Of a stretch of 24,000 nucleotides of DNA, positions 1 to 22,570 are shown piece by piece. A program made the position numbers and the translations under genes. Below the pieces are notes generated by a model. It was not told where the DNA came from. It saw nothing but the letters and a program-made list of their open reading frames with translations, and did no database searches. The stretch spans positions 28,572-52,571 of the forward strand of contig CAVRKM010000003.1 of assembly GCA_963722245.1 (NCBI GenBank). Direction: 5' to 3'. How positions within the stretch are numbered: position 1 is the stretch's first letter; every line of letters starts with the position of its first letter. Source of the stretch: an uncultured Thermoleophilaceae bacterium. GTDB lineage: Bacteria > Actinomycetota > Thermoleophilia > Solirubrobacterales > Thermoleophilaceae.

Positions 1-907
1 TGCTGGGGCTGGTCGCGGAGCAGACGGGCTACCCCGAGGATCTGCTCGACATGGACCTCGATCTCGAGGCCGACCTGGGGATCGACACGGTGAAGCAGGC
101 CGAGGTGTTCGCCGCGATCCGCGAGGCCTACGGGATCGAGCGCGATGACACGCTCAAGCTGCGCGACTACCCGACCATCAACCACGTCGTGGGCTTCGTC
201 CGCGAACGGGCTCCCGGCGAGGGCAGCGCGACTGCTGCCGCGGCGCCGCCGGCCGCTCCGCCCGCTCCCGCCGTTCCCGCTCCCGCGGCAGCACCCGTGG
301 CTCCTGCTGCTGTCGCTCCCGTCCCGGCGGGTGATGTCGAGGCGCGGGTGCTGGGGCTGGTCGCGGAGCAGACGGGCTACCCCGAGGATCTGCTCGACAT
401 GGACCTCGATCTCGAGGCCGACCTGGGGATCGACACGGTGAAGCAGGCCGAGGTGTTCGCCGCGATCCGCGAGGCCTACGGGATCGAGCGCGATGACACG
501 CTCAAGCTGCGCGACTACCCGACCATCAACCACGTCGTGGGCTTCGTCCGCGAACGAGCTCCCGGCGAGGGCAGCGCGACTGCTGCCGCGGCGCCGCCGG
601 CCGCTCCGCCCGCTCCCGCCGTTCCCGCTCCCGCGGCAGCACCCGTGGCTCCTGCTGCTGTCGCTCCCGTCCCGGCGGGTGATGTCGAGGCGCGGGTGCT
701 GGGGCTGGTCGCGGAGCAGACGGGCTACCCCGAGGATCTGCTCGACATGGACCTCGATCTCGAGGCCGACCTGGGGATCGACACGGTGAAGCAGGCCGAG
801 GTGTTCGCCGCGATCCGCGAGGCCTACGGGATCGAGCGCGATGACACGCTCAAGCTGCGCGACTACCCGACCATCAACCACGTCGTGGGCTTCGTCCGCG
901 AACGGGC
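1..907 (+). repeat. 348-bp tandem repeat (2.6 copies in the window, continuing upstream) encoding the ACP-plus-linker units
   Basis: Units start at 1, 349 and 697. Copies are identical at nucleotide level except one synonymous change (cgg at 205-207 vs cga at 553-555). Identity ends at 907. Confidence 0.95.
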
Positions 908-3533
908 CGGAGGGGGTGCGGACGCGCCGGACCTCGCCGACGCCGCCGAAGAGGAGGCCGGACCCGCCGAGGCCGTACCGGAGCGTGCTGAGCTCCCCGG
1001 CGAGACGGCCACCGCCGACGCGCAATCCGAGCACGAGGGCTACCCGCGCCGCGTTCCGGAGCCGGTCCTGCGCCCGCCCCTCGGCGTCTGCGTCGAAACG
1101 GGAGTGAAGCTCGGCGAGGGCAACCGCGTCGTCGTGATGCCGGATCGGGGCGGCGTGGCCAAAGCGCTCGCCAAGCGGCTCGCCACATCGGGTGTGGAGG
1201 TGCTCGCGATCAAGGGCGCGCCCGAGGTCGAGCAACTCGAGCAGCAAATCGAGGAGTGGAAGGCGGCCGGTCCGATCCAGGGCGTCTACTGGCTCCCCGC
1301 CCTAGACGAAGAGGGCGACATCGGCTCGCTGGAGCCCGCGGATTGGAGACAGGCTCTCCACATCCGGGTCAAGCTGCTCGCCACGACCATGCGCGCCCTG
1401 GCCGACCAGGTCGAGGAGCCGGGCACCTTCCTCGTCAGCGCCACCCGGCTCGGCGGGCGCCACGGCTACGATCGGGCGGGATCCACATCCGTGCTCGGCG
1501 GCGCGGTCAGCGGCTTCAACAAGGCGCTGGCGCGTGAGCGCGAGAAGGTGCTCGTGAAGGTCGTGGACTTCGCGGTCAGCCGCAAGAAGGCGGCGCTCGC
1601 CGACATCCTGGTGGAGGAGACTCTGCGCGATCCGGGAGCGGTCGAGATCGGCTATGCCGACGACCTGCGCTGGAGCGTCGCGCTGGTCGAGCGGGACGCG
1701 GAGGCCGATCCGGCACGCAAGCTCTCGGGCGACACGGTGTTCGCGATCACCGGGGCAGCGGGCAGCATCGTCTCCGCGATCACGGCGGACCTCGCCGCGG
1801 CCTCGGGCGGCACGTTCCATCTGCTCGACCTGGTTCCCGAGCCTGATTCCGGCGATCCCGATCTGGACCGCTCCGTCTCCGATCCCGACGGCCTGAAGCG
1901 CGAGCTCGCCGAACGCATCCAGCAGCGCGGTGAGCGGCCGACGCCGAAGCTCGTCGAGCGCGAGCTTGCGCGCATCGAGCGCGCCCGCGCCGCACGGGAC
2001 GGGATGCAGGCCGTTCGGGCGGCCGGCGGCACGGCGCACTGGCACCAGTGCGATCTCACCGACCCGAAGGCGGTCGAGGGAGCGCTGGCCGACGTGCGCG
2101 ACGCCGGGCGTGTGGACGTGCTGATGCACTGTGCGGGCCTCGAGGTCAGTCACTTCCTCCCGGACAAGCCCCAGCGCGAGTACGACCTGGTATTCGACGT
2201 GAAGGTGGACGGCTGGCTATCCCTGCTGCGAGCCCTACGCGCAACAGAGATCGGCACGGCGGTCGTGTTCAGCTCCATAGCCGGCCGCTTCGGGAACGCC
2301 GGACAGACCGACTACTCGGCCGCCAACGACCTGCTCTGCAAGAGCATTTCGAACCTGCGTCGACTCGGCGGGCACGCGCGGGATCGCGATCGACTGGACG
2401 GCGTGGGCCAGCATCGGCATGGCGAGCCGCGGCTCCGTTCCCAAGATGATGGAGATGGCGGGCATCGACATGCTGCCGCCCGAGCTCGGTATTCCAGTGG
2501 TCCGGCGCGAGATAACGGCCGCAGGCGACGGCGGCGAGGTGCTGGTCGGCGGCTCGCTCGGCGTGCTCGCCGACGAGCGCCACCCGACCGGGGGCATCGA
2601 CCCCGACGCCGCAAGCGAGAAGGTGGCGGCTCCGCCGGGGCCGATGAGCGGGCGGATCGTCTCCATGCCGCTTGGGACAGGGCTTGACCGTGCTGATCGA
2701 CCTCGATCCCAGCCGCCAGGCGTTCCTCTACGACCACCGCATCGACGGCACCCCGGTGCTGCCCGGCGTGATGGGGATGGAGGGGTTCGCCGAGGCAGCG
2801 CACGCACTGCTGCCCGGATGGCACCTCAGCGCGCTCGAGGACGTCGATCTCCAAGCCGCTTTCAAGTTCTACCGCGACGAACCGCGCACGCTCGAGCTGC
2901 ACGCGCTGCTGCGCGACGGCGGCGAGGGCACGATCGTGGCCGACTGCCGCCTGATCGGGCGTCGAGCGCTGCCCGGGCGCGGCGAAGAGGAGACCGTGCA
3001 CTTCACCGGCCGCGCGCGGCTGACGAAGGCGCCGCCGCCCGCCCCTCAAGGGCGCGAGAGCCCGAGCGCATCAGCGCGTGAGAGTGGCGAGGTGGACCGC
3101 GAGGCCGTCTACCGCGTGTACTTCCACGGCCCCGCCTACCAGGTGCTCGAGCGCGCCTGGCGAGCGAACGGCGCAATCGTGGGGGCACTGGCGCCGAACC
3201 TGCCGCCCGCGCACGAGCCGCCCGGACAGCCGACGGAGATCGCTCCGCGCCTGATCGAGCTCTGCTTCCAGACCGCCGGGCGTGTGGGAGCTCGGGAGGT
3301 TCGGCCGCATGGGCCTGCCGACCCACGTGGACCGCGTCGTCCGCTTCGAGGGTGCGGACGAGGGCGGCGCGCTGTTCGCCGTGGTCCACCCGCGCGACGG
3401 CGACGGCGTCGATGCCGAGGTGATCGACGAGAGCGGGACGGTGCGCGTCCGCCTCGAGGGCTACCGGACCACCGCGCTGCCGGGCGGACTCGATCCGGAG
3501 GCGCTCGATCCGATCCGCGCCGCCATGGACTAG
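1..3533 (+). CDS. C-terminal part of a PfaA-like type I PUFA/polyketide-type synthase (tandem ACP x>=3, KR, PKS-type DH). The 5' end lies outside the window and the reading frame is broken 3 times as assembled.
   Basis: ORF 51..2687 is open to the window start. It gives three near-identical 116-aa units ([45 protein letters not shown]...) joined by Ala/Pro-rich linkers, the PfaA tandem-ACP layout. These are followed by a Rossmann motif [15 protein letters not shown] and [12 protein letters not shown] (KR). The conserved sequence continues in frame 1 from ~2380 ([45 protein letters not shown]). It moves to frame 2 from ~2670 ([35 protein letters not shown], the DH HxxxGxxxxP motif) and back to frame 0 from ~3280 ([19 protein letters not shown]...). 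Stop TAG is at 3531-3533. Confidence 0.85.
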
Positions 3534-3549
3534 GAGCGTTGCCGCGGAC

Positions 3550-6500
3550 ATGGCCCAGCAACGACGGTTCACCCGGCTTGCGATCGTCAACCGCGGCGAA
3601 GCGGCGATGCGGGTCGTGCACGCCGCTCGCGAGCTGAACGAGGAACGCGAGGAGCAGCTCCACCTGATCGCGCTCTACACCGAGCCGGAGGCCCAGGCGA
3701 TGTTCGTGCGTCGCTCCGACGAGGGCTACTGCCTGGGACCCGCCACCTACACCGCTGCGGACGGCAGCCACCGCGCCGGCTACCTCGACTACGGGGCCCT
3801 GGAACGAGCCCTGACCGAGACCGAAGCAGAGGCCGCCTGGGTCGGCTGGGGCTTCGTCGCCGAGCATCCGGACTTCGCGGAGCTGTGCGAGCGGCTCGGG
3901 GTCGTGTTCGTCGGACCGAGCTCCGAGACCATGCGGCTCCTGGGCGACAAGATCCGCTCAAAGCAGCTAGCCGAATCCATGGGCGTCCCGGTAGCCCCCT
4001 GGAGCGGAGGTCCGGTCGACACGCTCGCTGAGGCCGTGCGCCATGCCGAGACGATCGGCTATCCGCTGATGATCAAGGCCACCGCGGGCGGCGGCGGGCG
4101 CGGGATCCGCCGGGTCGAGGCGGCAGACCAGCTCGCCCCGGCGTTCGAGCGGGCCCGGGCGGAGGCCGAGCAGGCCTTCGGTGACCCGACGGTTCTCCTG
4201 GAGCATCTTGTGACGCCGGCCCGCCACATCGAGGTCCAGGCGATCGCCGACGGCGCGGGCGGCGCCTGGGCGGTGGGCGTGCGCGACTGCAGCCTGCAAC
4301 GGCGCCACCAGAAGGTGATCGAGGAGTCGGCCAGCACGGCGCTGACGCAGGCGCAGGAGGATGAAGTCAAGGAGGCGGCGCGGCGCCTGGTTCTCGAGGC
4401 GGGCTACCGCGGCGCGGCGACGGTGGAGTTCCTCTACGAGCCGGCGGAACGGCGCTTCTCCTTCATGGAGGTCAACGCCCGCCTCCAGGTGGAGCACCCG
4501 GTGACCGAGATGACGACCGGGCTCGACCTGGTCAAACTCCAGCTCCACGTCGCCGAGGGCGGGACGCTTGAGGGCGAGCCGCCGCCCGCCGCCGGCCACG
4601 CGATCGAGGCGCGGCTGAACGCCGAGGATCCCGCCATGGACTTCGCTCCGGCACCCGGGCGCGTGGAGCTGCTGACCCTGCCGAGCGGCCCGGGGCTGCG
4701 CTTCGACCGGGGCGTGGAGACCGGCGACGTCATCCCGCCTGAGTTCGACTCGATGATCGCGAAGGTGATCGCTGTCGGCCGTGATCGAAAAGAGGCCATC
4801 GCACGTCTTCGCCGCGCGCTGCGCGAGACGACCGCTCTGATCGAGGACGGCAGCACGAACCGGGGCTTCCTGCTCAGGCTGCTGGAGCACCCCGACGTCG
4901 TGGCCGGCCGCGTGGACACCACCTGGCTCGACCGGCATCGGATCGGTGCCGATGCGGACCGGCTCGCCCACGCCGACGTCGCACTGCTCCAGGCCGCGAT
5001 CGAGCTCGGCGGAGCAGAGGACGCCGCCGACCGGGCGCGCTTCTATGCCTACGCCCGACGCGGGCGGCCCGAGGCCCGTGACGAGGTGGGCCGCACCGTC
5101 GATCTTGCCTACGAGGGACAGAGCTACCGCTTCCGGGTGCTTCAGGTCGCGCCGGGGTGCTCCCGCGTCACGGTCGACGGCGCCACCGTCGAGGTGGACG
5201 TCGAGCAGCTCAGCGCGCACGAGCGACGGCTGGCCGCGAGCGGCCGCAGCCACCGGACGGTGATCTCCGAGCAGGGCAGCCACCTGCTCGTCGAGGTCGA
5301 CGGCGTGCCGCACCGCGTCTCCCACGACGAGGGCGGCATCGTGCGCAGCCACGCCCCCGGGATCGTCGTGTCGCTCCCGGTGGCCGAGGGCGACGAGGTG
5401 GACGCCGGGGACGTGGTGGCTGTGCTCGAGAGCATGAAGATGGAGTCGTCGCTCACCGCGCCGCGCGCGGGCCGGGTGCGCCGGGTGCTGGTGGGCCCGA
5501 ACACACAGGTCGGCGCGCGCACGCCGCTGGTCCAGATCGACGAGGCGCAGCGCGGCCCGGCCCAGGACGGCGGGGAGCGGATCCGGTTCGAGGGCGGCGA
5601 CGCCGAGCTGCCCGAGTCGCCGCAGCGATGCGTGGACAACCTGCGCCGGCTGGAGTGGCTCATCCTGGGCTACGACGTGACCGACGCCGACGTTCGGCGC
5701 ATCGTCGCGGATCTGCACGGCGCCTGCTCCGACCTTTCGTGCAGCCCGGAGCTGATCCCCGGCGAGCACCGGCTGCTGCGGCTGTTCGCGGACCTGCGAG
5801 CGCTGACGCGGCCGCGTCACGAGGAGGACCCGGAGGGCGAGCTGCTGCGCAGCCCGCAGGAGTACCTGCACGCGTTCCTGCGCTCGCTTGACGCGGAGTC
5901 CGAGGGCTTGCCCGACCGGTTCGTCGCGCTGCTCGAGCGCGCGCTCGCGCATTACGGGATCACAGAGCTCGACCGCACGCCCGCGCTCGAGGATGCCTGC
6001 TACCGCATCGCCCTCTCCCAACAGCGCGCGCCCGCCCAGCGCGCCGCGATTACCGCGGTCCTCGACCGCCGCCTCGAGCTGGCCGACGAGCTCGCCGGCA
6101 ACGTTCCCGACGACTTCCGCGAGGTGCTCGACCACCTCGAGACGACGATGGAGGGCCGCGACCCGGCGCTGGCCGACCTCGCTCGCCAGGTGCGCTACCG
6201 CTACTTCGACGAGCCGGTGATCGCGGCCCGCCGCGACGCGACGTACCGCGAGGTGGCGGACCAGCTGGCGGCGCTCGCGTCGGCGCCCGACGCGCCAGAC
6301 GCGCGCCGACCGGATCAGCGTGCTGGTCGAGTGTCCCCAGCCGCTGGCGCCGCTGCTCTCGAGCCGCATGCGTGCGGCTGATCCACCCTTGCGCCGGGCG
6401 CTGGTCGAGACAATGGCGCGCCGCTACCACCGCCTGGGCACGCTGTCCCCGTTCACCGAGGCGAGTGCAGGAGGAGTGTCCTTCATGTGCTCCGACCACG

Positions 6501-9158
6501 AGCGCGACGGCAAGACCCGGCGCCTCGCCGCCGCCTTCGTGGAACTCGATCAGGTCGGCGCGGCCGGCCACGCGCTGGCCGAGCTCGCGGGCGAGACCGA
6601 CGAGTCGATCGAGTTCGTGGCCGACTTCTACGCCGCCCACCCCGAGCCCGCCGAGTCGCACGACGAGCTTCGCGCCCGGCTGCGGCAGGAAATCGCGGAG
6701 GCCGCCCTGCCGACCCGGGTGGAAAGCGTGGTGTTCGCGTTCGCCGAGCCCGCGCGCGGGCGCGGCATGTCCGCCGTCGACTTCGTCAGCTTCCAGCCGG
6801 ACTGCCGACGGCACCCTCGCGGAGGACGACTCGCTGCGCGACCTCCATCCGATGATGGCCGAGCGCCTGCGGCTCTGGCGCCTTGCCGAGTTCGACCTGA
6901 CGCGGCTTCCCTCCGCCGAGGATGTCTACCTCTACAGCGGCGTGTCGAGGGCCAACCCGAAGGACGAGCGCCTCTTCGCGCTCGCCGAGGTGCGCGACCT
7001 GACACCCGTCAACGACGAGACGGGCCGTCTGCACGGGCTGCCCGAGCTGGAGCGGGTGCTGGTCGAGGCGCTCGAGGCGATGCGTGCCTTCCAGGCTCCC
7101 CGCGAGCCGCGCCGGCGCCTGCTCTGGAACCGAGTCCTGCTCTACGCCTGGCCCACGATCGACTTCGCCCCCGACGACGTGCGCCGCGTCATCGAGCGCT
7201 ACGCCCGCGCGACCGGGGGCCTCGGGATCGAGATGGTCGAGCTGCGCGGCACGATGCGCGATGAGGCCGGCGGGGAGTCGGAGCGCGAGCTGCGCTTCTT
7301 CAGCCCCACCGGACGCGGCGTGGTGGTGGAGGTGGACGATCCGCCCACCCGCCCGCTGCAGCCGCTCGACGAGGGCGCGCGACGGGTCGTGCAGGCGCGG
7401 CGCCGCGGCACCGTCCATCCCGCCGAGCTCGTGAAGCTGCTCGCCCCTGCGCGCGGGGACCGCGACCACGGGGGCCGGCCCCCCGGCGCCTTTGTCGAGC
7501 ATGACTTTGACGCTCGCGGCCGACTCGCGCCCGTCAGCCGCGGCCCGGCCCTGAATGAGGCCAGCGTCGTGGTGGGAGTGGTGAGCAACTACACCGATCG
7601 CTATCCCGAGGGCATGCAACGCGTCGCCCTGCTGAGCGACCCCACACGCGCGCTGGGCTCGCTGGCCGAACCGGAATGCACCAGGATCATCGCCGCGCTC
7701 GACCTCGCCGAGAAACTCGGGGTGCCGGTCGAATGGTTCGCCCTGTCGGCTGGCGCCAAGATCGCGATGGACTCCGGCACGGAGAACATGGACTGGATCG
7801 CCGCGGTGCTGCGCAGGATCATCGAGTTCACCCAGCGCGGGGGTGAGCTGAACGTCGTCGTGACCGGCATCAACGTCGGCGCTCAGCCGTACTGGAACGC
7901 CGAGGCGACGATGCTCATGCACACGCGCGGGATCCTCGTGATGACGCCCGACAGCGCGATGGTGCTGACAGGCAAACAGGCGCTCGACTACTCGGGCGGC
8001 GTCTCAGCCGAGGACAACTTCGGCATCGGCGGCTACGAGCGGATCATGGGACCCAACGGGCAGGCCCAGTACTGGGCGCCCGACCTGGCGGCAGCCTGCA
8101 GGGTGCTGCTGTCGCACTACGAGCACACCTACGTGGCGCCCGGCGAACGCTTCCCGCGCCGCGCTCAGACCTCCGACCCGATCGAGCGCGACGTGTGCGG
8201 CTCGCCCCACTTCGCACCGGGGTCGGACCTGCGCGAGGTGGGCGAGATCTTCTCGGACGAGACCAACCCCGGCCGCAAGAAGCCGTTCGACATCCGCTCC
8301 GTGATGCTGGCGACGGTCGACCGCGACCATCCGCCGCTCGAGCGCTGGGCCGGGTGGCGCGAGGCGGAGGTCGCCGTGGTCTGGGACGCCCATCTGGGCG
8401 GCTGGCCGATCTCGGTGCTCGGCATCGAGTCCCGGCCCCTGTCGCGCCACGGGGCGCTGCCGGCCGACGGCCCCGAGCAGTGGACCTCGGGCACGCTCTT
8501 CCCCCAGGCGTCGCGCAAGATCGCCCGTGCGATCAACGCCGCCAGCGGTCGCCGCCCGGTCGTGGTCGTCGCAAACCTCGCCGGCTTCGACGGCTCACCC
8601 GAGTCGATGAGCCGCTGGCAGCTGGAGTACGGCGCCGAGATCGGCCGTGCCGTCGTGAACTTCAGCGGGCCGATCGTGTTCTGCGTCGTCTCGCGCTACC
8701 ACGGCGGCGCGTTCGTGGTGTTCTCCCAGCGGCTGAACGACGATCTCGAGGCAGTGGCGCTCGAGGGCTCACGCGCCTCGGTGATCGGAGGGGCACCGGC
8801 GGCGGCCGTCGTGTTCGCCCAGCAGGTGAAGCGGCGCACGACGCGCGATCCCCGGATCGTCGAGCTGGACGAGCGGATCGAGGCGGCCGAGGGGGCCGAG
8901 CGCCAGCGGCTGCGCGCGCAGCGTGCCGACGCCTGGTCTGAGGTCCACGCGCAGCATCTCGGAGAGCTGGCCGCGGAGTTCGACTCGATCCACTCAGTGG
9001 AGCGAGCGCTTCGGATGGGGTCGGTTAGCCGCATCATCGAGCCGGGCAACATGCGGCCGTTCCTGATCGACGCGGTCGAGCGCGGCATGGAGCGCACGCT
9101 CAAGCGAGACCACCCTGGTCATGACCTCGCCGGGCTGGCTGACGCGCTCCATCGCTGA
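3550..9158 (+). CDS. Single-chain multidomain acyl-CoA/acetyl-CoA carboxylase (biotin carboxylase, BCCP, carboxyltransferase), ~1850 aa. The frame is broken twice as assembled (~6300 and ~6803).
   Basis: The N-terminus FTRLAIVNRGEAAMRVV, KATAGGGGRGIRRV and MEVNARLQVEHPVTE identify the BC/ATP-grasp domain. The biotinylation motif is VLESMKMESS, with the Lys codon at 5437-5439. The CT domain shows VVTGINVGAQPYWNAEATMLMHTRGILVMTPDSAMVLTGKQALDYSGG and VVANLAGFDGSPESMSRWQLEYGAEIGRAVVNFSGPIVFCVVSRYHGGAFVVFS. The conserved reading passes from frame 1 (ORF 3550..6381) to frame 2 (ADRISVLVECPQPLAPLL..., ORF 6320..) to frame 0 (ADGTLAEDDSLRDLHPMMAERL..., ORF 6372..9158). Confidence 0.85.
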
Positions 9159-9834
9159 CGTCCCGGCGGACGACGGCTGGCTCGGTCCGGGCGAGCGCGA
9201 GGTGCTCGCCCGACTTCGGTTCGAGAGGCGCCGCCTGGACTGGCGGCTCGGCCGCTTCACGGCGAAGGCCGCCGTGGCGGCCTGGCTGGGCCTACCCGCC
9301 ACCGGCGTGGTGATCGCGGCCGCATCCGACGGCGCGCCAGAGGCCCGCGTCGGCGACGACCCGGCCCCGGTCTCGCTGTCGCTGAGCCATCGGGGCGGGC
9401 GCGCGCTCGCTGTGGTGGGCGAGGCGGGCATTGCGATGGGATGCGATCTCGAGTTAATCGAGCCGCGCAGCCGGGCCTTCGTGGCCGACTGGCTTGCGCC
9501 GGCCGAGCAGGCTCTGGTGGCCGATGCCTGCGCCTCCGACCGCGACCTGCTCACGAACCTCCTGTGGACCGCGAAGGAGGCCGCCGCCAAGGCACGGCGG
9601 GAGGGGCTCCGCCTTGATCCCCGGCACGCCGTGGCGACGCCCACCGGGATCGGTTCCACGACCCCCGGCTGGCGCCGGCTCGAAGTCATCTGGAGCGACG
9701 GCGGCGGGTGCGCCGCGGGCTGGTGGCGAGGCGAGCCGGGTTGGGTGATGGCAATCGCCGGCGAGCCGGCGCCCGGTGTCCCGCGGGCGCTCGACGCCGT
9801 GGCGACCGAGCCTGCACTGGACGATGGACCGTAG
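9121..9834 (+). CDS. Sfp-type 4'-phosphopantetheinyl transferase
   Basis: 237-aa ORF with IAMGCDLELIE (metal-binding GxD..E) and LLWTAKEAAAKARREG (W/FxxKEAxxK). It overlaps the carboxylase stop by 38 nt and sits next to a multi-ACP synthase. Confidence 0.8.
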   Translation: MTSPGWLTRSIADVPADDGWLGPGEREVLARLRFERRRLDWRLGRFTAKAAVAAWLGLPATGVVIAAASDGAPEARVGDDPAPVSLSLSHRGGRALAVVGEAGIAMGCDLELIEPRSRAFVADWLAPAEQALVADACASDRDLLTNLLWTAKEAAAKARREGLRLDPRHAVATPTGIGSTTPGWRRLEVIWSDGGGCAAGWWRGEPGWVMAIAGEPAPGVPRALDAVATEPALDDGP

Positions 9835-9975
9835 TTCGCCCGCATCAGGTCAAGCGACTCCCTCGGATGCTCCGGCCTCGGCCTTCATCCGGCCGTCTTA
9901 AGACCCCTCGTTTCTCGCGGTCGTTGCCGCAAGCTCAGCGAAGCGCGACGACGGTCATCGACGGCACCGGTCCAG

Positions 9976-10010
9976 CAGTAACCCGCTCTCACCGAGCACG
10001 AGCGTTACTG
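9976..10010 (-). terminator. Stem-loop on the chromosomal side of the island junction, possibly the native terminator downstream of the original tRNA-Phe 3' end
   Basis: CAGTAAC(cc)GCTC, an 11-nt loop, then GAGCGTTACTG form an 11-bp stem with a 2-nt bulge. It abuts and overlaps the direct repeat at 10007. There is no T tract. Confidence 0.3.
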
Positions 10011-10050
10011 ATGGCGAGGGCCGGAATCGAACCGGCGACACCACGATTTT
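10007..10050. repeat. Distal att-type direct repeat: a copy of the 3' 39 nt of tRNA-Phe plus 5 nt of flank
   Basis: The 44 nt are identical to 22493-22536. A degenerate extension (10052-10059) matches 22537-22548 with indels. Confidence 0.9.
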
Positions 10051-10272
10051 TCAGTTGCTTCCGAAGGGTGTCGGGTGGTGCACTCGGGTGTTCCGTGGCT
10101 TGGTAGCGGGATAGCAGGTGCCTCGTGGTGCGCTCCGGTGCACCTGGAGGTTTCCAAGCCGTTTCGAAGACGGTGAAGGGCTGAGCGAGAGGCGAGCCCG
10201 CTTGCACGGCGGGTTCCTGCACGGACCTTTCCGGCGCCGCAAGCGGTCGAAGCTTCCCTGGAAGCGCTGAGT

Positions 10273-10317
10273 GGCCGGGCACCCGGGGACCGCAAAGGGC
10301 CCCGCGGATGCCCGGCC
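10273..10317 (-). terminator. Long GC-rich hairpin immediately downstream of the FAS1 gene
   Basis: GGCCGGGCACCCGGGGACC, loop gcaaa, then GGGCCCCGCGGATGCCCGGCC form an imperfect ~19-bp stem. It starts 10 nt after the stop codon (10327-10329). There is no U tract, as is common in high-GC actinobacteria. Confidence 0.45.
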
Positions 10318-10326
10318 TGCTCAGGG

Positions 10327-10845
10327 TCAGCGCGGAGGAAGCAGGACGGCGTTGATCGCGTGGATCACGCCGTTGGATGCCTTGACGTCGGCCTGGATCA
10401 CCTTCGCGCCGCCCACCCGCACGGTGCTTCCGCGGGTGCGGACGCGGACGCGAGGCCCGGCCAGGGTCTTGAGCGAGTCGACCTTCACTACCCGCGCGGC
10501 CGGGTAACGGCCGGCCACGGCGTGGTAGAGCAGCACGCGCTTCAGCGCCTTCGGGTCCTCACCAAGCGCCTCGAGGGTCTCGGCCGGGACCTTCTTGAAG
10601 GCCTTGTCGGTCGGGGCGAAGACCGTGAACGGCCCCTTCCCCGACAGTGTCTTTGCGAGCCCGGCGCTCTTGACGAGCGAGACGAGCGTGTCGAAGCGCC
10701 CGTCGGCGGCGGCTGTCTTCACGATGTTCTTCCGTGCCTGCTTTGCAGCGGGCTCCGCGGTGGAGCCGTTGCCGCCCCCGAGCGCGACGGCCGCGGTGGC
10801 GAGTCCCGCTACGGCGACCAGGACGAGGATTGCGAGCTTACGCAT
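10327..10845 (-). CDS. Secreted fasciclin (FAS1) domain protein
   Basis: 172 aa with signal peptide MRKLAILVLVAVAGLATAAVA. FAS1 motifs are FTVFAPTDKAF, LLYHAV and NGVIHAINAVLLP. AAGGAG (10857-10852) lies 6 nt before the ATG. Confidence 0.9.
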   Translation of the reverse strand: MRKLAILVLVAVAGLATAAVALGGGNGSTAEPAAKQARKNIVKTAAADGRFDTLVSLVKSAGLAKTLSGKGPFTVFAPTDKAFKKVPAETLEALGEDPKALKRVLLYHAVAGRYPAARVVKVDSLKTLAGPRVRVRTRGSTVRVGGAKVIQADVKASNGVIHAINAVLLPPR

Positions 10846-10869
10846 TAGTCACTCCTTCTGTCGATGTGC

Positions 10870-10919
10870 TGTACCACTCTTGTCCAAGAACTGTATAGCA
10901 CACGTCGAGCTACTGTCAA
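10870..10919 (-). promoter_or_regulatory. Predicted promoter of the FAS1 gene (TTGACA, 18-nt spacer, TACAGT) overlaid by 11-bp-phased TGT/ACA repeats; candidate LitR/CarH operator
   Basis: On the minus strand TTGACA is at 10919-10914 and TACAGT at 10895-10890. On the plus strand TGTAC starts at 10870, TGTCC at 10881, TGTAT at 10892, CGTCG at 10903 and TGTCA at 10914, an exact 11-bp phase. The 10-mer ACTGTATAGC (10890-10899) recurs at the litR promoter. Confidence 0.5.
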
Positions 10920-10975: not shown

Positions 10976-11829
10976 CTAGAGCGTGGCGGCGACCGCTACC
11001 GGGTCGCCCGCCAGCACGCGGCAGCCGAGTGAGCGCGCCACGTCATCGCTGGCGCCCAAGCCGGCGATGGCGAGCGCATGGTCCTGAGCGAGCGCGGCCA
11101 GCTTGCTCGCCTCGGCGGCGGAAGCCCTGGGACGTCACGGCGGTTACGACGACGAGCGCCGGGCGCACCCGGTCGGCCGTCTCCGCCACGCTCGCCGCGG
11201 GTGTGTCGGCGCCGAGGAAGACGATCCTCCAGCCCCGTTCCCGCAGCGCCAAGCCGAACACGATGAGCGGCAGATCGTGCTGCTCGCCGGCCGCGCATGC
11301 GAGCAGGGCGATGCGGCCACCGCCCCGTTCCCATCCTCGCGCCAGGGCGAGTAGCCGGCCACGAATCAGGTTGCTGGCGAAGTGCTCCTGCGCGATCGAC
11401 ACCGCGCCTTGCTCCCAGCGGCTACCCAGGTCCCGCAGGTACGGGAGGATCACCCCGGACAGGGCGGTCTCGACCATGAACGTCCAGAAGACCTCGTCGA
11501 GCGCGGCATGGGCATCCTCGGCGTCCATAGTCGTCGAGGGCGGCCGTGAGCCGCTCGCGCGCGAGATGCAGTGCGCTCTCGTTGCCTCCCGTGCCGAGCT
11601 CAGGCTCCGCGAGCGCCAAGCGCGCGGCCTCGGCGGCGGAGATGCCGCGCTCGAGCTCTGCCTGCATCGCCCGGACCCGACGCTCGTCGTCGGGCGAATA
11701 CAGGCGCAGGCCGCCACCGGTGCGCGCGGGGTCGAGGAGCCCGTAGCGGCGCTCCCAGGCTCTCAGGAGCTCCGGACTCACACCGGTCCGGCGGCTGAGC
11801 TCGCCGATCCGCAGGGTGTGCACGCTCAT
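10976..11829 (-). CDS. litR: MerR-family, B12-binding light-responsive regulator (LitR/CarH type). The frame is broken twice as assembled (~11525 and ~11115-11135).
   Basis: The N-terminal MerR HTH is MSVHTLRIGELSRRTGVSPELLRAWERRYGLLDPARTGGGLRLYSPDD. The Wx9EH motif is RWEQGAVSIAQEH (W codon 11417-11415). The B12-binding segment GEQHDLPLIVFGLALRERGWRIVFLGADTP has its His codon at 11279-11277. The C-terminus is recovered in a third frame (AAEASKLAALAQDHALAIAGLGASDDVARSLGCRVLAGDPVAVAATL, stop at 10978-10976). Confidence 0.8.
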
Positions 11830-11832
11830 CGC

Positions 11833-11865
11833 TGTACTGTATAGCTTTTGTACAGAGGTGTGGAA
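11833..11865 (-). promoter_or_regulatory. Predicted leaderless litR promoter (TCCACA, 17-nt spacer, TACAGT) with TGT/ACA repeats; candidate autoregulatory operator
   Basis: TACAGT is at 11841-11836 and the A of the ATG (11829) is the 7th nt after it. TCCACA is at 11864-11859. Plus-strand TGT starts at 11833, 11838, 11849 and 11859. ACTGTATAGC at 11836-11845 is identical to 10890-10899. Confidence 0.45.
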
Positions 11866-11910
11866 GGACACGGGCGCCTCGCCCGCGAAGCTGTCTCGCC
11901 CCTGACGCTT

Positions 11911-12621
11911 ATGGCGGTCCAGCTCTTTCGCCATCGCGATCAGGACCCGTCCGTAGATGACAACGCACTGGTGACCTTCGCCCAAGAAGGTTTGCCGGTG
12001 ACCGAGGAGTACGACGGAGGCCGTCTCTTGACGCGCGTCAACGGGCGGCGGATGATCACGCCGCTCGTCCTCGTGCTGCTTGCGATCGGCAGCACGGACA
12101 TCCTGTTCGCACTGGACTCCATCCCGGCGGTCTTCGGCGTCACGGAGGAGACGTTCATCGTGTTCGCGGCCAAGGCGTTCGCCTTGCTCGGCCTGCGCGC
12201 GCTGTTCTTCCTGGTCACTGGACTGCTGGACCGGCTCGTCTACCTCTCAACGGGCCTATCGCTCATCCTCGCCTTCATCGGCGCCAAGCTCGTGCTGCAC
12301 TGGGGCCACCTCCAGAACCCCCATGTCCCTGAAATCTCCACCGGGGCATCGCTCGTGGTCATCGCGGTCGTGCTCGGTATCACGACCCTCGCCAGCCTCA
12401 CCGAAGTGCGCCGGAACCCGACCGGCGAGCGCATGCTGGTTCGCTGCGCTCGCACCCGCCGGAGTCCCCGCCCCGCCGCGGGCCGACCGAAACACCGTCA
12501 AAGGCGCCCAAGGGCCCATGGCAACGAAGCGGCCGAAGTGATTCGGCACCCTCGACCTCCTGAACGGCAAGCGGAACGTGAAGTGCCCGTTCGCCGCGGA
12601 TATCCCTGCAAACACGCATGA
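11911..12621 (+). pseudogene. TerC-family membrane protein, C-terminal half only (5'-truncated remnant)
   Basis: GRRMITPLVLVLLAIGSTDILFALDSIPAVFGVTEETFIVFAAKAFALLGLRALFFLV matches the TerC core. The N-terminal ~4 TM segments are absent and the remnant begins at the litR promoter. The Arg-rich tail after ~12430 looks non-native. Confidence 0.6.
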
Positions 12622-12797
12622 TCAGGCGGTTGCGGGCGACGAGCCAGGCGCGGGCGCGGTCGTGACGTTCTGCACCATCCCGGGAACGTCTTAACCGGCG
12701 CGGACGGAGCCCGGTTTGTGCGACAGCCCCCATGGGAAGCGGCAGCGGCGGGCCGGGCGGCGGCGTCGCTCCAGACCTGTGGCCCGCCCGCGTCCGC

Positions 12798-13583
12798 TCA
12801 GCCGCCTGCGAGCGCGCCGGCGTAGACCTGCCATGCCAGCGCGCTCTTGGCGACCAAGCTGAGGATCAGGTAGACGCGCTCGGCGAACGCCGGGTCCGCC
12901 CAACGGCCGCGCTCACGGTACTGCAGCCACATGTTGACCGCGAACGTGTTGAAGAGCAGGAACAGCGTGACGAAGATCGCGACGACGAACCCGGGGACCC
13001 CGTTGCCGTCGCTAGTCGAGACGACGAGTTGGGCCGTGATCGCGATCCACGGGACGGCGCCAACCACGCACCCGAAGATGAACGGCCGCCAGTCCACCTC
13101 GTCACGGCCGGCGTTCACCTGCTCCTGCACAAGCCCGAAAAGGATCATCGCCGCATTCGCCCCGAACAGCGCGATCAGCGCGACGAGCTCGCTGACCCCA
13201 GCGAGCATCGCGATGAGCACGACCATGAGCGACGCGCTGACCGAGTACTCCCACCAGCGCGCCGGATTGATCCCGCGCGCAACGTTCGCCTCGTACCAGC
13301 GGCGCGGCCGCCCGCCGCTCAGCGTGAGGTGGTCGACCGCGGCGAGCAACAGAAACGCCGCGACCAGCCAGTCGATCCGCACACTGCCCAGGCTCGCGGA
13401 GCCGAAGTCGCCGGCGCCGGGCGGGCCGACCAGGAACGACGCCGTGATCGGGAGCGAGGCGGCAGTCGCGATCGCGAGCAGGACGACCGCCTGAAGCGCG
13501 TGCACGGAACCGACGATGACGTTCAGACGGCGCAGTCGGGAGGCCGCCGCGGCGTCGAGCTGGGCTGGCGCACGATCGGGCAT
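12798..13583 (-). CDS. Heliorhodopsin (7-TM retinal protein, HeR family)
   Basis: The 261-aa product is colinear with the 48C12 prototype as I recall it: LNVIVGSVHALQAVVLLA, RWWEYSVSASLMVVLIAMLAGVSELVALIALFGANAAMILFG, FGCVVGAVPWI, VPGFVVAIFVTLFLLFNTFAVNMWLQY and YLILSLVAKSALAWQ. H28, H85, E112 and K246 align with H23, H80, E107 and K241 at a constant +5 offset. The Lys codon is at 12848-12846. Confidence 0.9.
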   Translation of the reverse strand: MPDRAPAQLDAAAASRLRRLNVIVGSVHALQAVVLLAIATAASLPITASFLVGPPGAGDFGSASLGSVRIDWLVAAFLLLAAVDHLTLSGGRPRRWYEANVARGINPARWWEYSVSASLMVVLIAMLAGVSELVALIALFGANAAMILFGLVQEQVNAGRDEVDWRPFIFGCVVGAVPWIAITAQLVVSTSDGNGVPGFVVAIFVTLFLLFNTFAVNMWLQYRERGRWADPAFAERVYLILSLVAKSALAWQVYAGALAGG

Positions 13584-13795
13584 GTCCCCAAAGGTACGGT
13601 CGCGGGAGAGAAACGGACCCCGCGTGCCCGGAGGGGTGTCACGGGGATGCCGGACAACAGCGAAGCACGGCGCAAGCTGTAGCCCGAGAGAGCGACTTCT
13701 ACGGAGGGTGGATGACCGCCGACCTGATCGATCCCCTTCAAGGGACCGCCGGGCAGGCTCGGCTGGTGAGGCCGGGGCTGCCGGCGGCTTCGCCT

Positions 13796-14227: not shown

Positions 14228-14338
14228 CAGTCGCCCTCCTTGCCGCCGGAGGCGATCGTCGGCACCGTCCCGGCATCCTCGCTCCAGCCGGAGAGACGGG
14301 AGCATTCGTCCCAAAGTCGCTCGCGGTCGGCCTCGGAC

Positions 14339-15247
14339 TCACGCGTCCACGGCACCCGGTGGGTGGACCGCGGGCGCGCGGTCGTGCCAGAACAGACCCG
14401 GGCGCTCGGCAGGCTCGGCGGCCGTCGCGAGCCAGACGATCGTGTCGGCCGCCTGGTCGGCGCTGCGGAGCAGCGGGCGCATCAGCTTGCGGAAGCGGGG
14501 CAGTGACGTCTGCACGCCGGGCGTGTCCGCCCAGCCCGGGTGCATGGCGTGGACGCCGATTCCGGTTTCGCGAAGCCGCTCAGCCCAGAGTTCGGTGAGG
14601 ATCACCTCGCAGCGTTTGGTGTGTGCGTAGAACGCCGGCGGGTCGTACTCGCGGCGCTCCAGCTGGAGGTCATCGGCGCAGAGCCGTTGCGTGTACATGC
14701 CGCCCGAGGAGACGTTGATCACCCGCGAAGGCGCGCCGCGGCGCAGGGCCGGCAACAGCAGGTTGGTGAGCAGAAACGGGCCGAGCACGTTGGTCGCGAA
14801 GGTGAGCTCGAAACCCTCCTCGGTGTGAGTGCGCGTGGACGGCATCACGCCGGCGTTGTTGACGAGCACATGAAGCTCGCCGTGCTCGCTGACGAAGCGA
14901 GAGCTGAACTCACGCACCGAGGCGAGGCTGGACACGTCGCAGACCTCTACCTCCAGGTGGTCGGAGCCGGTGCGCTCGGAGATGCGAGCCCTGGCTCTCT
15001 CGCCCTTTTCACGGTCACGGACGAGCATGTGCACGGTAGCGCCAAGGCCCGCGAACCGCTCGCACGCGGAGGCGCCGATCCCCGCTCCGGCGCCGGTGAC
15101 CAGCACCGACCAACCTGCCGGGGCCGCCTTCGGATCGGGGTCGTTCCAGAACCGCTCCCGCACGGCAAACCCGAGCCTGCTGTAGCCGGGCAGGACAGTC
15201 CAATCGAGGGTCTTGTCGAGGAGGCCGGAGATCAAGGCTCCATTCAC
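14339..15247 (-). CDS. Short-chain dehydrogenase/reductase (DHRS12/retinol-dehydrogenase-like subfamily)
   Basis: GTG start at 15247 follows AGGAGAGG. Motifs are VLVTGAGAGIGAS (TGxxxGxG), NNAG and YAHTKRCEV (YxxxK), with the N-terminal LDKTLDWTVLPGYSRLGF extension. The rest of ORF 14339..15967 upstream is out-of-frame overlap with the next gene. Confidence 0.8.
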   Translation of the reverse strand: MNGALISGLLDKTLDWTVLPGYSRLGFAVRERFWNDPDPKAAPAGWSVLVTGAGAGIGASACERFAGLGATVHMLVRDREKGERARARISERTGSDHLEVEVCDVSSLASVREFSSRFVSEHGELHVLVNNAGVMPSTRTHTEEGFELTFATNVLGPFLLTNLLLPALRRGAPSRVINVSSGGMYTQRLCADDLQLERREYDPPAFYAHTKRCEVILTELWAERLRETGIGVHAMHPGWADTPGVQTSLPRFRKLMRPLLRSADQAADTIVWLATAAEPAERPGLFWHDRAPAVHPPGAVDA

Positions 15248-16732: not shown

Positions 16733-17734
16733 ATGCGACGGCTGCGCACGATCCCGCCGCGCGTGCTGGGGTTGCTGCTGGTCACGGTGCTGCTGCCCGG
16801 TGCTGCTCGTCGTCGCCGTCGTGATCGACGCGCTGCGCCGGGTGGCGTTTGGCGTGCCGCCGACGGCCGCGCGGCTCGTCCTGTTCCTCTGGGTGTACCT
16901 CGCCGCCGAGGTCGCGGGCGTCGCCGCGCTGGCGACGCTGTGGGTCGCGAGCCTCGGCGGCCGGCGCAGCGCCTGGCTGCGTGAGATGACCTGGCGCGTC
17001 CAGCAGCTGTGGGCCGGCGCGCTGCTCGGCGCGGTGCGTGCGCTGTTCCGGCTGCGGCTCGAGGTCGCGGGTGGCGACGAGGTCGCGCCGGGGCCCGTGA
17101 TCGTGCTGATCCGCCACGCGAGCATCGTCGACAACCTGCTGCCGGCGAACCTCGTCGCCCGCCCGCACGGGATCCGCCTGCGCTACGTGCTCAAGCGCGA
17201 GCTGCTCGCCGATCCCTGCCTCGACATCGCCGGGCGACGGCTGCCGAACTACTTCGTGCGCCGCGGAACGGGCGAGGCGCAGGAGCTCGAGCGGGTGCGG
17301 GCGCTCGCCCACGGCCTCGGGACCCGGCGACGGCGTGCTGATCTATCCCGAGGGGACCCGCTTCACGCCGGAGCGCCGCGCCCGCGCGATCGCGCGCATC
17401 GCCGAGCGCGACGCGCGACCTGGCCGCGCGGGCGGAGCGGATCCGGCATCTGCTGCCGCCGCGCCTCGGCGGCGTCGGCGCGCTGCTCGACGGCGCACCG
17501 GACGCCGACGTCGTGGTGATCGCCCACCACGGCTTCGACGGCCTGCGGCTGATCTCGGACATCTGGCGCGGCGGCCTCGTCGGGCTCGTGGTCCGGGTGC
17601 GCGTGACGCGGGTGCCGCGGTGCGCGGTGCCCGAGGCGGATGCCGCCCGCGCGGACTGGCTCTACGAGCTCTGGCAGGACGTCGACGACTGGCTCGACGA
17701 GCAGTTCGAAGAGCGCCGCCGCGCGGATACCGGC
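16733..17734 (+). CDS. PlsC-family lysophospholipid/1-acyl-glycerol-3-phosphate acyltransferase. The frame is broken 3 times as assembled (~16798, ~17320, ~17410).
   Basis: MRRLRTIPPRVLGLLLVTVLLP continues in another frame as VLLVVAVVIDALRR. Motifs follow: VLIRHASIVDNLL (HxxxxD), GDGVLIYPEGTRFTPERR (next frame) and RIRHLLPPRLGGVGALLDG...VVVIAHHGFDG (next frame). No stop precedes the DUF1295 start in that last frame. Confidence 0.7.
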
Positions 17735-18562: not shown

Positions 18563-19520
18563 TCAGTGATCGTGCGGCGGCGGTGGACGGGATGGAGAAC
18601 CGGCCGGGGTGGGCGCCCCCTCATCCTCGCCAAGCGCCCTGCGCAGCGCCTCCGTGAAGGGGATCGGGTGCACGTCGAAGAGCGCCGCCCCCGAGCTGTC
18701 CGTAACGGTGGTCGGCGTCGACAGCCCCTCTACGAGTGGCCGGGCGACTCCGGCGTCGACCGGGGTCACGAGTCCGATCCAGAGCGAGGACAGCCAGGGC
18801 GTGAGGAGCGGCACCGGCACCCGGGGGCGGCGCCGCACGCCGAGGGCATCGGCCATCAGGTCGAGCATCTCGCCGTAGGAGAGGACGTCGGGACCTGCGA
18901 TCTGCACCTCGCGGCCCGCTGAGGCTGGGACGTCGGGCGCCGCCACTAGGTAGGTCATCACGTCGTCGATCGCGATCGCCTGCGTGGGCGTCTTGAGCCA
19001 CGCGGGGCCGATCATCGCCGGGAGCCGCTGCACGAGGTAGCGCAGTGTGCGGTAGGACTCGCTTCCCTCCCCCACGATCATCCCGGCTCGGAAGTAGGTC
19101 AGCGGCGGCCCCCGCTCGGAGAGAATCTCGGCGGTCCGGTGGCGGCTGCGAAGGTGCGCCGACCCCGGGCGATCACCCAGCCCGCCCAGGTAGACGACCC
19201 GGGCGATCGCCCTCTCGCGTCGCCATCTCGGCGAAGTTCCGCGCGCTGTGCCGCTCGCGTTCCTCAAACTCGCCCCGTGCCCCGCGTCCCATCGCGTGAA
19301 TGAGGTAGTAGGCGATCTCGACTCGTTCCCCGGCCCCGCGCAGCGCGTTTGCATCGAGCACGTCGGCCTCGTGCAGCTCGAAGCCACGATCGGCCAGCTC
19401 CTGCGCTCGCGAGCGGTCGCGCACGAGACAGCGCACCTCCCAGCCGCGGTCGGCGAGCGCAGCGGCCAGCCGCCCGCCCACGAACCCGGTGGCGCCGGTC
19501 ACGAGCGCACGCCGCGGCAA
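18563..19520 (-). CDS. NAD(P)H-binding NmrA/atypical-SDR-like protein. The frame is broken once as assembled (~19210).
   Basis: MPRRALVTGATGFVGGRLAAALADRGWEVRCLVRD has a TTG start after GAGAGGA. The sequence then continues in another frame as IARVVYLGGLGDRPGSAHLRSRHRTAEIL...GREVQIAGPDVLSYGEMLDLMADALG. Confidence 0.75.
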
Positions 19521-19580: not shown

Positions 19581-19873
19581 TCAGCCTGCGAGCGCGCCGG
19601 CGTAGACCTGCCATGCCAGCGCGCTCTTGGCGACCAAGCTGAGGATCAGGTAGACGCGCTCGGCGAACGCCGGGTCCGCCCAACGGCCGCGCCCACGGTA
19701 CTGCAGCCACATGTTGACCGCGAACGTGTTGAAGAGCAGGAACAGCGTGACGAAGATCGCGACGACGAACCCGGGGACCCCGTTGCCGTCGCTAGTCGAG
19801 ACGACGAGTTGGGCCGTGATCGCGATCCACGGCACGGCGCCAACCACGCACCCGAAGATGAACGGCCGCCAGT
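19581..19873 (-). pseudogene. 3' fragment of a second heliorhodopsin gene (last ~96 codons, TM6-TM7 including the retinal Lys)
   Basis: The 293 nt match 12798-13093 with 2 substitutions and one in-frame 3-nt indel. There is no 5' part and no credible start. Homology stops 13 nt from the MFS stop codon. Confidence 0.85.
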
Positions 19874-19886
19874 AGACCCGAGTCCT

Positions 19887-21807: not shown

Positions 21808-21880
21808 TCGAACCGGCGACACCATGTTCTGACGCGTGGTCTCCAGCGTTCTAGTCCAGCGCCCGATCCAGGGGCGCACC
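21808..21880 (-). other. Degenerate tRNA-like relic / possible third att copy
   Basis: 21808-21824 (TCGAACCGGCGACACCA) is identical to 22513-22529 of tRNA-Phe and to 10027-10043. Weaker anticodon-arm and D-arm-like similarity extends to ~21880. It cannot fold into a canonical cloverleaf because the second half of the T-loop and the acceptor 3' strand are missing. Confidence 0.45.
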
Positions 21881-21893
21881 ACGCGCCCAAAGC

Positions 21894-22388
21894 ATTGGAC
21901 TCGTCTGGGGCAACATCGACTTCGGCAAGGAAGCGATCCGAGTCACCGGACAGCTTCAGCGTGGACGCAAAGAGGACGACCTTTGGATTCCGCTCATCGC
22001 GTCGAGTACGCGAAGACCGATGCTGGCTCGCGCATCGTGGAACTCATCCCGTCCGATCTGTTCAAGGCGCTCAAGAAGCACAAGCTCGGGCTCACCTCAC
22101 TGACGACGAAGACCTAGTTTTCTGCACGGCAGACGGGACGCCCCCGGTCCATCGCAACGTCTCCAAGCGAGGCTTCGTCTCAGCCAAGGAGAGGGCCAAA
22201 CTCGATGGACCTGGCAAGCCCAACCTGCGCTTCCACGATCTGAGGCACACCTACGCCTCAGCCAACATCGCGGCAGGCGTAGATGCGATCTACCTCGCTA
22301 ACCAGCTAGGGCACCAGCGAGCTTCACGATGGACATTTACGCGGACCTGTTCGAGGCCCGGGAGAAGGCGGACTCGTCTCGAACCTAG
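21894..22388 (+). pseudogene. Tyrosine recombinase (phage-type integrase), C-terminal catalytic half only, with >=3 frame breaks
   Basis: GLVWGNIDFGKEAIRVTGQLQRG (frame 0), AKTDAGSRIVELIPSDLFKALKKHKL (frame 2), DLVFCTADGTPPVHRNVSKRGF...NLRFHDLRHTYASANIAAGVDAIYLANQLGH (frame 1) and FTMDIYADLFEAREKA (frame 0, catalytic Tyr). Stop TAG is at 22386-22388. Confidence 0.8.
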
Positions 22389-22451
22389 CTCGAAGCGAGC
22401 GGCTACAGCGGTCTCGTCTGAGACCTCGCGTTCCCAAATCCGTTTCCAAAC

Positions 22452-22485
22452 GAGGCTCCGGCGCAACTCGGAGCCTCCGTTTTGG
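22452..22485 (+). terminator. Intrinsic terminator hairpin between the integrase remnant and tRNA-Phe
   Basis: GAGGCTCCG, loop gcgcaact, then CGGAGCCTC form a perfect 9-bp stem followed by CGTTTTGG. Confidence 0.6.
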
Positions 22486-22497
22486 CTCTAGGACTGA

Positions 22498-22570
22498 TGG
22501 CGAGGGCCGGAATCGAACCGGCGACACCACGATTTTCAGTCGTGTGCTCTACCAACTGAGCTACCTCGCC
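22498..22570 (-). tRNA. tRNA-Phe (anticodon GAA)
   Basis: The minus-strand reading is GGCGAGG TA GCTC AGTTGGTA GAGC A CACGA CTGAAAA TCGTG GTGTC GCCGG TTCGATT CCGGC CCTCGCC A. It is a perfect cloverleaf of 73 nt, and CCA is not encoded. Confidence 0.95.

Follow-up and report, generated by a model that had tools for sequence, protein, structure and literature searches.

We analysed a 24,000-nucleotide stretch of contig CAVRKM010000003.1 from an uncultured Thermoleophilaceae bacterium (positions 28,572 to 52,571; hereafter the window), in which a gene for a heliorhodopsin (HeR) lies beside a gene for a putative B12-dependent regulator of the LitR/CarH type. The first-pass annotation of this DNA, made from the sequence alone, had placed these two photoreceptor genes side by side; they are truly adjacent, and their pairing exceeds chance in related genomes. 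Our favoured reading, held with little more than balanced confidence, is that two separate light-related units stand next to each other in a rearrangement-prone region flanked by tRNA-Phe sequence, and that the link between HeR and LitR is one of facultative light-gated co-expression, not a fixed two-sensor machine. The features that bear on this reading are listed below by window position; related loci are referred to by L numbers.

10327-10845, minus strand: fasciclin-domain protein of 172 aa, intact, with a hydrophobic, signal-like N-terminus (Pfam Fasciclin, 9.5e-39)
10859-10919, minus strand: predicted CarH-type operator between litR and fasciclin, built from six 11-bp direct repeats in tandem (repeat scans)
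10976-11829, minus strand: class I LitR/CarH-type regulator, 283 aa as reconstructed from three frames (Pfam, tblastn and alignment to Thermus CarH, TtCarH)
11836-11873, minus strand: litR upstream region, putatively regulatory, with hexamers TGTACA (11854-11849) and TATACA (11843-11838), conserved with L003
11908-12621, plus strand: TerC fragment, C-terminal half, inverted relative to LitR and HeR (Pfam TerC, 3.9e-23, profile positions 73-177 of 178 only)
12798-13583, minus strand: HeR of 261 aa, intact (Pfam and solved-structure matches)
13588-13619, minus strand: conserved block upstream of HeR, GGTCCGTTTCTCTCCCGCGACCGTACCTTTGG; a -10-like TACCTT immediately precedes the ATG
19581-19886, minus strand: HeR stump, approximately the last 100 codons (repeat D2; Pfam HeR profile positions 159-242 only; tblastn query residues 160-260)

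The regulator combines a MerR helix-turn-helix (HTH), a B12 four-helix bundle as well as a Rossmann B12-binding domain. Its ATG lies at 11829 and its stop codon at 10978-10976, and Pfam matches were obtained to MerR_1 (1.9e-16), B12-binding_2 (2.2e-08) and B12-binding (1.7e-07; 31.5 bits against a cut-off of 32.1, scored on a frame fragment). Thermus CarH (3WHP, 5C8D) aligns to residues 7-272 at E ~1e-28, with both domains covered. The Wx9EH motif (RWEQGAVSIAQEH), defined as capping the adenosyl group (PMC8156234), and the lower-ligand histidine (GEQH) are in register with TtCarH, W-EQGAVSIAQ-EH being aligned to W-HRGEIGVAE-EH, and FLGADTP is also present. A four-element signature, GxxW, EH, GxxH and GxxxP, has been proposed for light-responsive B12 domains (PMC11796333); the regulator has all four, as GSRW, EH, GEQH and GADTP. 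In its MerR HTH, four-helix bundle, Rossmann domain, Wx9EH motif and lower-ligand histidine, the window LitR resembles CarH and class I LitR proteins (Thermus thermophilus CarH, PDB 5C8D; Myxococcus xanthus CarH; Bacillus megaterium and Streptomyces LitR), and binding of B12 is predicted by analogy with CarH. An intact 283-aa ortholog (P0121) shares 94% identity over 100% of the reconstructed protein, and hundreds of JGI proteins labelled 'light-induced transcriptional regulator' also match it. The B12-photoreceptor hallmarks named in the first-pass annotation (Wx9EH, GEQH and FLGADTP) thus hold up, but the gene is not a single open reading frame and its classical B12-binding motif is degenerate.

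The interruptions of litR were resolved by tblastn into three frames (11829-11533, 11528-11115 and 11113-10979), separated by two single-base frameshifts near 11528-11533 and 11113-11115. The first frame encodes the MerR HTH, the second the four-helix bundle and most of the Rossmann domain, and the third the last 45 residues. Outside the shifts, litR is 93-96% identical to its intact ortholog, with zero stops inside the frames. Comparison with intact homologs gave two frameshifts for litR, one each for the NmrA-like and SDR genes, two for the acyltransferase gene and none for fasciclin, HeR or DUF1295. Frame switches also occur in the MFS gene and, outside the island described below, in a polyketide synthase (PKS)-like gene (51-3637) and a fused carboxylase gene (3550-9158); single-base shifts fall about every 1-2 kb of coding sequence, as measured over 10976-11829, 14284-15235, 16770-17728 and 18599-19514. 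A single soil project that assembles metagenome-assembled genomes (MAGs) from long reads (records MFD...) is the source of all the closest relatives. Among these long-read contigs, the litR genes of L001, L002 and L004 are shifted at other positions; many other copies are intact. Because shifts are spread across the window, sister assemblies are shifted elsewhere and an intact 283-aa ortholog exists, the litR frameshifts are probably assembly indel errors rather than signs of pseudogenisation.

Between the litR stop and the fasciclin start, the predicted operator comprises the repeats TTGACA, TCGACG, TATACA, TGGACA, GGTACA and TCGACA. It overlaps a fasciclin promoter, TTGACA-18-TACAGT (10919 to 10890), which with 10 of 12 matches is the best sigma-70-like promoter of the region. 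Related loci carry tandem TGTnnA hexamers exactly 11 bp apart upstream of litR genes. A scan for triple repeats returned 37 matches in 1.55 Mb of loci versus 0-1 in shuffled sequence, and a weight-matrix scan (~1.55-1.6 Mb of loci) returned 46 versus 0; nearly all repeat-scan matches adjoin litR or fasciclin genes. Read on the opposite strand, the repeat core is TnnACA. The published CarH repeat, nAnnTnnACAn, has this same core and occurs in CarH operators as three or four tandem copies (PMC8156234). In the family-wide consensus over all loci, T5 and A8-C9-A10 match the CarH consensus, and position 2 is mostly C, not A. The window operator therefore resembles CarH operators in having tandem 11-bp repeats with a TnnACA core over a sigma-70-type promoter, and differs from them in having six repeats where they have three or four. 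In the whole-window repeat scan, the fasciclin promoter alone scored. By sequence, then, the predicted operator sits on the fasciclin promoter and not on the HeR promoter in this window, and fasciclin is likely a direct LitR target.

Upstream of litR itself, the two hexamers are also 11 bp apart; they are weaker and were read by eye, and a -10-like TACAGT lies 7 nt 5' of the ATG. Homology of this region to L003 stops at 11873. As a candidate palindromic LitR site, TGTACA was set aside: two copies in the window versus 0.39 expected are uninformative on their own.

HeR stands apart from this unit. The first-pass annotation had called it complete, and the end-to-end match to Pfam PF18761 (3.2e-90; protein residues 17-258 on profile positions 1-242 of 242) confirms this, as does the structure of the HeR 48C12, aligned at 1.5e-60 over 243 residues. 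E-values of 1e-60 for 48C12 (PDB 6SU3) and 1e-53 for TaHeR (PDB 6IS6) mark both as full-length homologs, with identities of roughly 45-50% estimated by eye from the alignment. Residues H27, H84, E111 and K245 align with H23, H80, E107 and K241 of 48C12 and are invariant or nearly so across 18 relatives. In 48C12, H23 and H80 are the conserved histidine pair, E107 is the helix 3 counterion and K241 the retinal Schiff-base lysine of helix 7. Like 48C12 and TaHeR, the window HeR keeps the retinal lysine, the counterion glutamate and both histidines; unlike them, it belongs to a soil Solirubrobacterales clade whose HeRs often come in several copies and have a private conserved upstream block.

This block, 32-45 nt in length (CGTCCGTTTCTCTCCCGCGCCCGTACCTTGGG), is conserved directly 5' of HeR whatever the neighbouring gene, at 21 related places (for example L011:336-367), and across the fetched loci it was seen only at HeR. 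CarH repeats were not found within it. Examined as an RNA element, it gave an RNAalifold energy of ~0 kcal/mol and zero covariation, and an Rfam scan of the window matched the tRNA alone, with no cobalamin riboswitch. The block is probably a private promoter, possibly one for a leaderless transcript or for an alternative sigma factor. HeR is therefore a separate cassette with its own promoter-like leader, distinct from the LitR-fasciclin unit.

The 3' end of HeR is duplicated within the window: 12804-13098 and 19584-19878 form a 295-nt repeat (D2) that is 99% identical, in agreement with the earlier claim of a second HeR stump about 6 kb away. The stump adjoins the 3' end of the frame-broken MFS transporter gene. 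HeR is often present in several copies per MAG, as in the pairs L026/L027, L014/L032 and L012/L044, and HeR fragments recur beside modules of LitR and fasciclin, those listed being L026:900-1211 and L074:3969-4763 and 9824-10759. Recombination between HeR copies would explain both the stump and the shifting neighbourhoods, as this pattern suggests.

The recurrence of the pairing was surveyed in 80 HeR loci, one per GTDB species and all from Solirubrobacterales, with HeR 60-95% identical to that of the window. LitR genes were detected with a hidden Markov model built from 120 LitR homologs and run against six-frame translations of the loci with 10-kb flanks. A full MerR plus B12 LitR was found within 10 kb in 11 of the 80 loci, and 10 of the 12 LitR genes lie no more than 2 kb from HeR. 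Up to 2 kb from HeR there are 32.7 LitR genes per Mb, versus 1.8 at 2-10 kb, an approximately 18-fold enrichment (binomial p ~1e-5, uncorrected for shared ancestry). The LitRs beside HeR fall into at least six lineages with at most 57% mutual identity, and the adjacent HeRs are mostly 88-97% identical to that of the window. At least six gene orders or orientations were observed, among them the following.

heR convergent with litR
heR, then an inverted fasciclin-litR pair
L043: litR-operator-fasciclin-heR, all co-directional
L044: operator-fasciclin, a 65-nt gap, heR
L030, a Thermoleophilaceae MAG from short reads: litR-terC-heR, its genes spaced by 12 and -8 nt, preceded by tandem TGTCTA repeats and divergent from fasciclin

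By its layout, litR-terC-heR of L030 appears to be a compact operon, in which the MerR-type regulator would be co-transcribed with HeR. The window looks like a scrambled relative of this arrangement, because its terC fragment (11918-12487) shares 76-78% nucleotide identity with the complete terC located immediately before heR in L030 and L032.

A second, independent sample was centred on relatives of a HeR 55% identical to that of the window and comprised 80 metagenome contigs, often short and 557 kb in total. It yielded two further cases of HeR beside a regulator, both at ~1.2 kb or less and both from a HeR clade different from the window's.

L108: canonical CarH-type LitR divergent from epimerase/DUF1731, then heR after 10 nt
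L147, 62-958, minus strand: B12 regulator with both B12 subdomains, Wx9EH and ExHxxG, a C-terminal XRE-type HTH and no N-terminal MerR HTH; divergent from DUF378-heR-TudS/DUF1722

L147 represents a different architecture of putative B12 photoregulator beside HeR. The pairing proposed from the window thus recurs in other genomes, with varied LitR lineages, varied gene orders and a second HeR clade.

A LitR-centred comparison gives a complementary view. Across eight distinct loci (L003, L030, L085, L086/87, L088, L169-172, L173 and L174-177), LitR and fasciclin are constant, often together with the small membrane protein DUF378, and only L030 has HeR nearby. The window fasciclin is 98% identical to the fasciclin 3' of the LitR ortholog in L003, where that ortholog adjoins NucS. 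Transposases and an integrase flank the LitR-fasciclin modules of L169-L172. Since LitR and fasciclin are constant and HeR is mostly absent, the conserved unit is LitR-operator-fasciclin, with HeR as an optional neighbour. The mobile module of HeR and LitR raised in the first-pass annotation is consequently not a conserved one: the LitR-operator-fasciclin unit usually occurs without HeR, and HeR has its own upstream block. The module of LitR and a secreted fasciclin is itself conserved in Solirubrobacterales (window 10327-10919, L003, L086-L088 and L169-L177), and its fasciclin promoter carries predicted operators of CarH-type 11-bp repeats. In L085 (6001-8060), a LitR paralog 67% identical to that of the window has DUF378, an NmrA-like epimerase and TudS/DUF1722 before it and a phytoene/squalene synthase gene after it, the classical carotenoid-type setting of LitR in the same organism group.

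The mechanism we favour is built by analogy with CarH. In the first unit, LitR would bind adenosyl-B12 and, in the dark, sit as a tetramer on the six 11-bp repeats over the fasciclin promoter; light would cleave the B12 cofactor, the tetramer would dissociate and fasciclin would be transcribed. LitR probably also autoregulates through the two repeats at its own promoter. The second unit would be the HeR cassette under its own conserved promoter-like leader. In some genomes, HeR appears to lie inside a LitR-controlled transcription unit, as litR-terC-heR (L030), as operator-fasciclin-heR (L044) or beyond an epimerase gene divergent from litR (L108). The excess adjacency and the presence of HeR in predicted LitR-controlled units elsewhere together make facultative light-gated co-expression of HeR the most likely relationship; light response and regulation of HeR are predicted here from gene content and layout.

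Several observations weigh against this reading. In the window itself the link has been scrambled: the two genes are separated by an inverted terC fragment, HeR has no operator in its vicinity and litR, as assembled, is broken across frames. The repeat and matrix scans found no CarH-type repeat array upstream of the window HeR or of the SDR-SRPBCC genes that lie before it. If both frameshifts are real, litR is here a pseudogene. The classical B12-binding motif, ExHx2G-x41-SxV/T-x22-27-GG (PMC8156234), deviates at three positions in the window LitR, where ExHxxG reads EQHDLP, SxV reads TAV and GG reads AG; TAV follows after 41 residues and AG after 24, and proline in place of the glycine of ExHxxG is common to the intact LitR relatives in L003 and L030. 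This EQHDLP reading, together with a gene that is frame-broken as assembled, sets the window LitR apart from CarH. Among the surveyed loci, 69 of 80 have no LitR within 10 kb; pairing occurs in 9 of 27 loci whose HeR is at least 85% identical to the window's and in 2 of 53 below that value. The enrichment test ignores shared ancestry, and its sample is a single bacterial order. Finally, HeR was not found in seven of the eight LitR-centred loci (flanks of 5-10 kb upstream; the downstream flank of L003 is shorter). The association is therefore partly supported: it is recurrent, sometimes operon-like and spread across regulator lineages, and it is also facultative, clade-restricted and partly anticipated in print.

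A serious, if rather unlikely, alternative is pure hitch-hiking: flexible, recombination-prone regions next to tRNA genes would house both HeR and the LitR-fasciclin module, with no regulatory or functional tie between them. It would account for the patchwork make-up of the window, whose segments adjoin HeR in various genomes, and it fits the presence in 16 of 37 loci of tRNA genes no more than 10 kb from HeR, the transposases and integrases beside LitR-fasciclin modules in L169-L172 and the operator that was not found at the HeR promoter; HeR fragments and multiple copies per MAG likewise point to frequent recombination. Such drift does not readily explain why 10 of 12 LitR genes are found at 2 kb or less from HeR and not scattered through the 10-kb flanks, why tight operon-like layouts occur in L030, L044 and L108, or why in L147 a B12-photoreceptor regulator with another DNA-binding domain also stands beside HeR. 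At the other extreme, HeR might be a regular and direct member of adenosyl-B12-LitR/CarH light regulons in several bacterial lineages, one photoreceptor gating the synthesis of another, with TerC, fasciclin and SDR/epimerase proteins as HeR partners and possibly HeR feedback on LitR. We regard this stronger version as unlikely; it draws on the layouts litR-terC-heR, operator-fasciclin-heR and the B12-XRE regulator beside DUF378-heR-TudS.

Less probable still is that the locus has decayed, litR being a true pseudogene, the surroundings of HeR the wreck of an old island and light regulation gone. The two litR frameshifts, the truncated terC, the HeR stump, the truncated integrase and the frame-broken NmrA, SDR, acyltransferase and MFS genes would all be expected. 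Frameshifts are, however, equally frequent in the large core-type PKS and carboxylase genes outside the island, litR retains its high identity to the intact ortholog without internal stops, and the different shift sites in related long-read MAG contigs fit indel errors better. We give the least credence, and very little of it, to direct signalling between the two photoreceptors, with HeR as a membrane sensor that physically modulates LitR or its targets. There are precedents: in Pseudomonas mendocina a short LOV protein acts via a class II LitR whose gene adjoins its own (PMC9758184), Gloeobacter rhodopsin acts on an HTH regulator (PMC11217422), and HeRs reportedly work by binding to partners encoded by neighbouring genes (PMC9529153, PMC11109279); the HeR-LitR adjacency also recurs. 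The window LitR, however, has the full B12-photoreceptor motif set and therefore does not need a sensor upstream of it, HeR is missing from most LitR modules, and the varying orientation, spacing and LitR lineage are unexpected for a co-evolving protein pair. The P. mendocina system is alike in that the gene of a LitR-family regulator adjoins that of another photoreceptor unrelated to it, and unlike in that its class II LitR lacks a Rossmann B12 domain and depends on LOV, whereas the window LitR has a complete B12 photoreceptor signature.

The association of HeR with such regulators is not wholly without precedent in print. Cho et al. 2024 (Nat Commun 15:4306, PMC11109279) list ten frequent HeR operon partners that include a MerR family transcriptional regulator, TerC, SDR and alpha/beta hydrolase; the MerR regulator group comprises four HeRs. 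The earlier impression that a link between HeR and LitR was undescribed is therefore right only in part: MerR regulators were already among the frequent partners, but B12 and CarH are not mentioned in that connection. In the accessible parts of that paper, B12 occurs only in an unrelated title in the reference list, is absent from the supplementary files, and the MerR neighbours are not tied to B12 or CarH. Bulzu et al. 2021 mention neither MerR nor B12, and the B12-photoreceptor mining paper (PMC11796333) leaves rhodopsins unmentioned. As in the HeR groups of Cho et al. 2024, a MerR regulator, TerC, SDR and alpha/beta hydrolase all surround the window HeR. Unlike in their MerR group, heR and the regulator do not form one operon in the window, with the inverted terC fragment between them and heR under its own leader, and the authors propose protein-protein modulation, not transcriptional light control.

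What HeRs do remains a matter of debate, and their gene neighbours have supplied most of the leads. Should HeR repeatedly sit in B12-photoreceptor regulons, its role could be narrowed to a light-stress or light-adaptation response. Clearly new are two things, the CarH-type operator defined here and the pairing of LitR with fasciclin; the word fasciclin was absent from the top-ranked results of a literature search that combined it with LitR/CarH and light-regulation terms. Unlike in CarH systems, the adjacent target of the window LitR would be a secreted fasciclin (terC-heR in some genomes) and not carotenoid or photolyase genes, and a conserved target of this kind extends LitR regulons beyond carotenoids and photolyase. 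Because the pair is scrambled and the regulator frame-broken here, the window serves as a pointer and not as a model case.

The wider setting of both units is an island whose borders are marked by the following features.

10007-10050: 44-nt direct repeat, left copy, matching the 3' part of tRNA-Phe (family D4; identity to 22493-22536 is 100%)
21836-22491, plus strand: C-terminal remnant of a tyrosine recombinase (integrase) in two frames (Pfam Phage_integrase, 7.1e-08, profile positions 89-159 of 172)
22498-22570, minus strand: tRNA-Phe, overlapped by the right 44-nt repeat copy (22493-22536)

To judge by sequence, the 44-nt repeats are att-like island boundaries. With a repeat of the tRNA-Phe end at both borders and an integrase fragment beside the tRNA, the region is plausibly an old integrated element with a dead integrase; the fragment, of ~200 aa, abuts tRNA-Phe and falls short of a functional integrase. 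The island character assumed in the first-pass annotation is supported by these same elements. GC content is ~0.70 over the window; the island, at 0.68-0.76, resembles the left flank (0.70-0.74), and the right flank is lower (0.64-0.66). The island is a patchwork in which NmrA-like, SDR-SRPBCC, acyltransferase-DUF1295 and MFS segments each flank HeR in other genomes. The tRNA genes near HeR in the 37 loci checked include those at L001:13860-13932, L020:11825-11900 and L002:12913-12987, and in L001 and L020 a tRNA-Phe lies a few kb from HeR, as in the window.

Outside the island, translations of the open reading frames show three tandem 348-nt repeats at window positions 1-996, putatively acyl carrier protein domains of a synthase of the polyunsaturated fatty acid (PUFA)/PKS-like type. 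In this PKS-like gene (1-3637), the repeats are followed by putative ketoreductase and dehydratase pieces in shifted frames. At 3550-9834, beside the PKS-like gene, a putative fused acetyl-CoA carboxylase-type gene (biotin carboxylase, carrier and carboxyltransferase), read from its translation as split over three frames, is followed by a 4'-phosphopantetheinyl transferase (Pfam).

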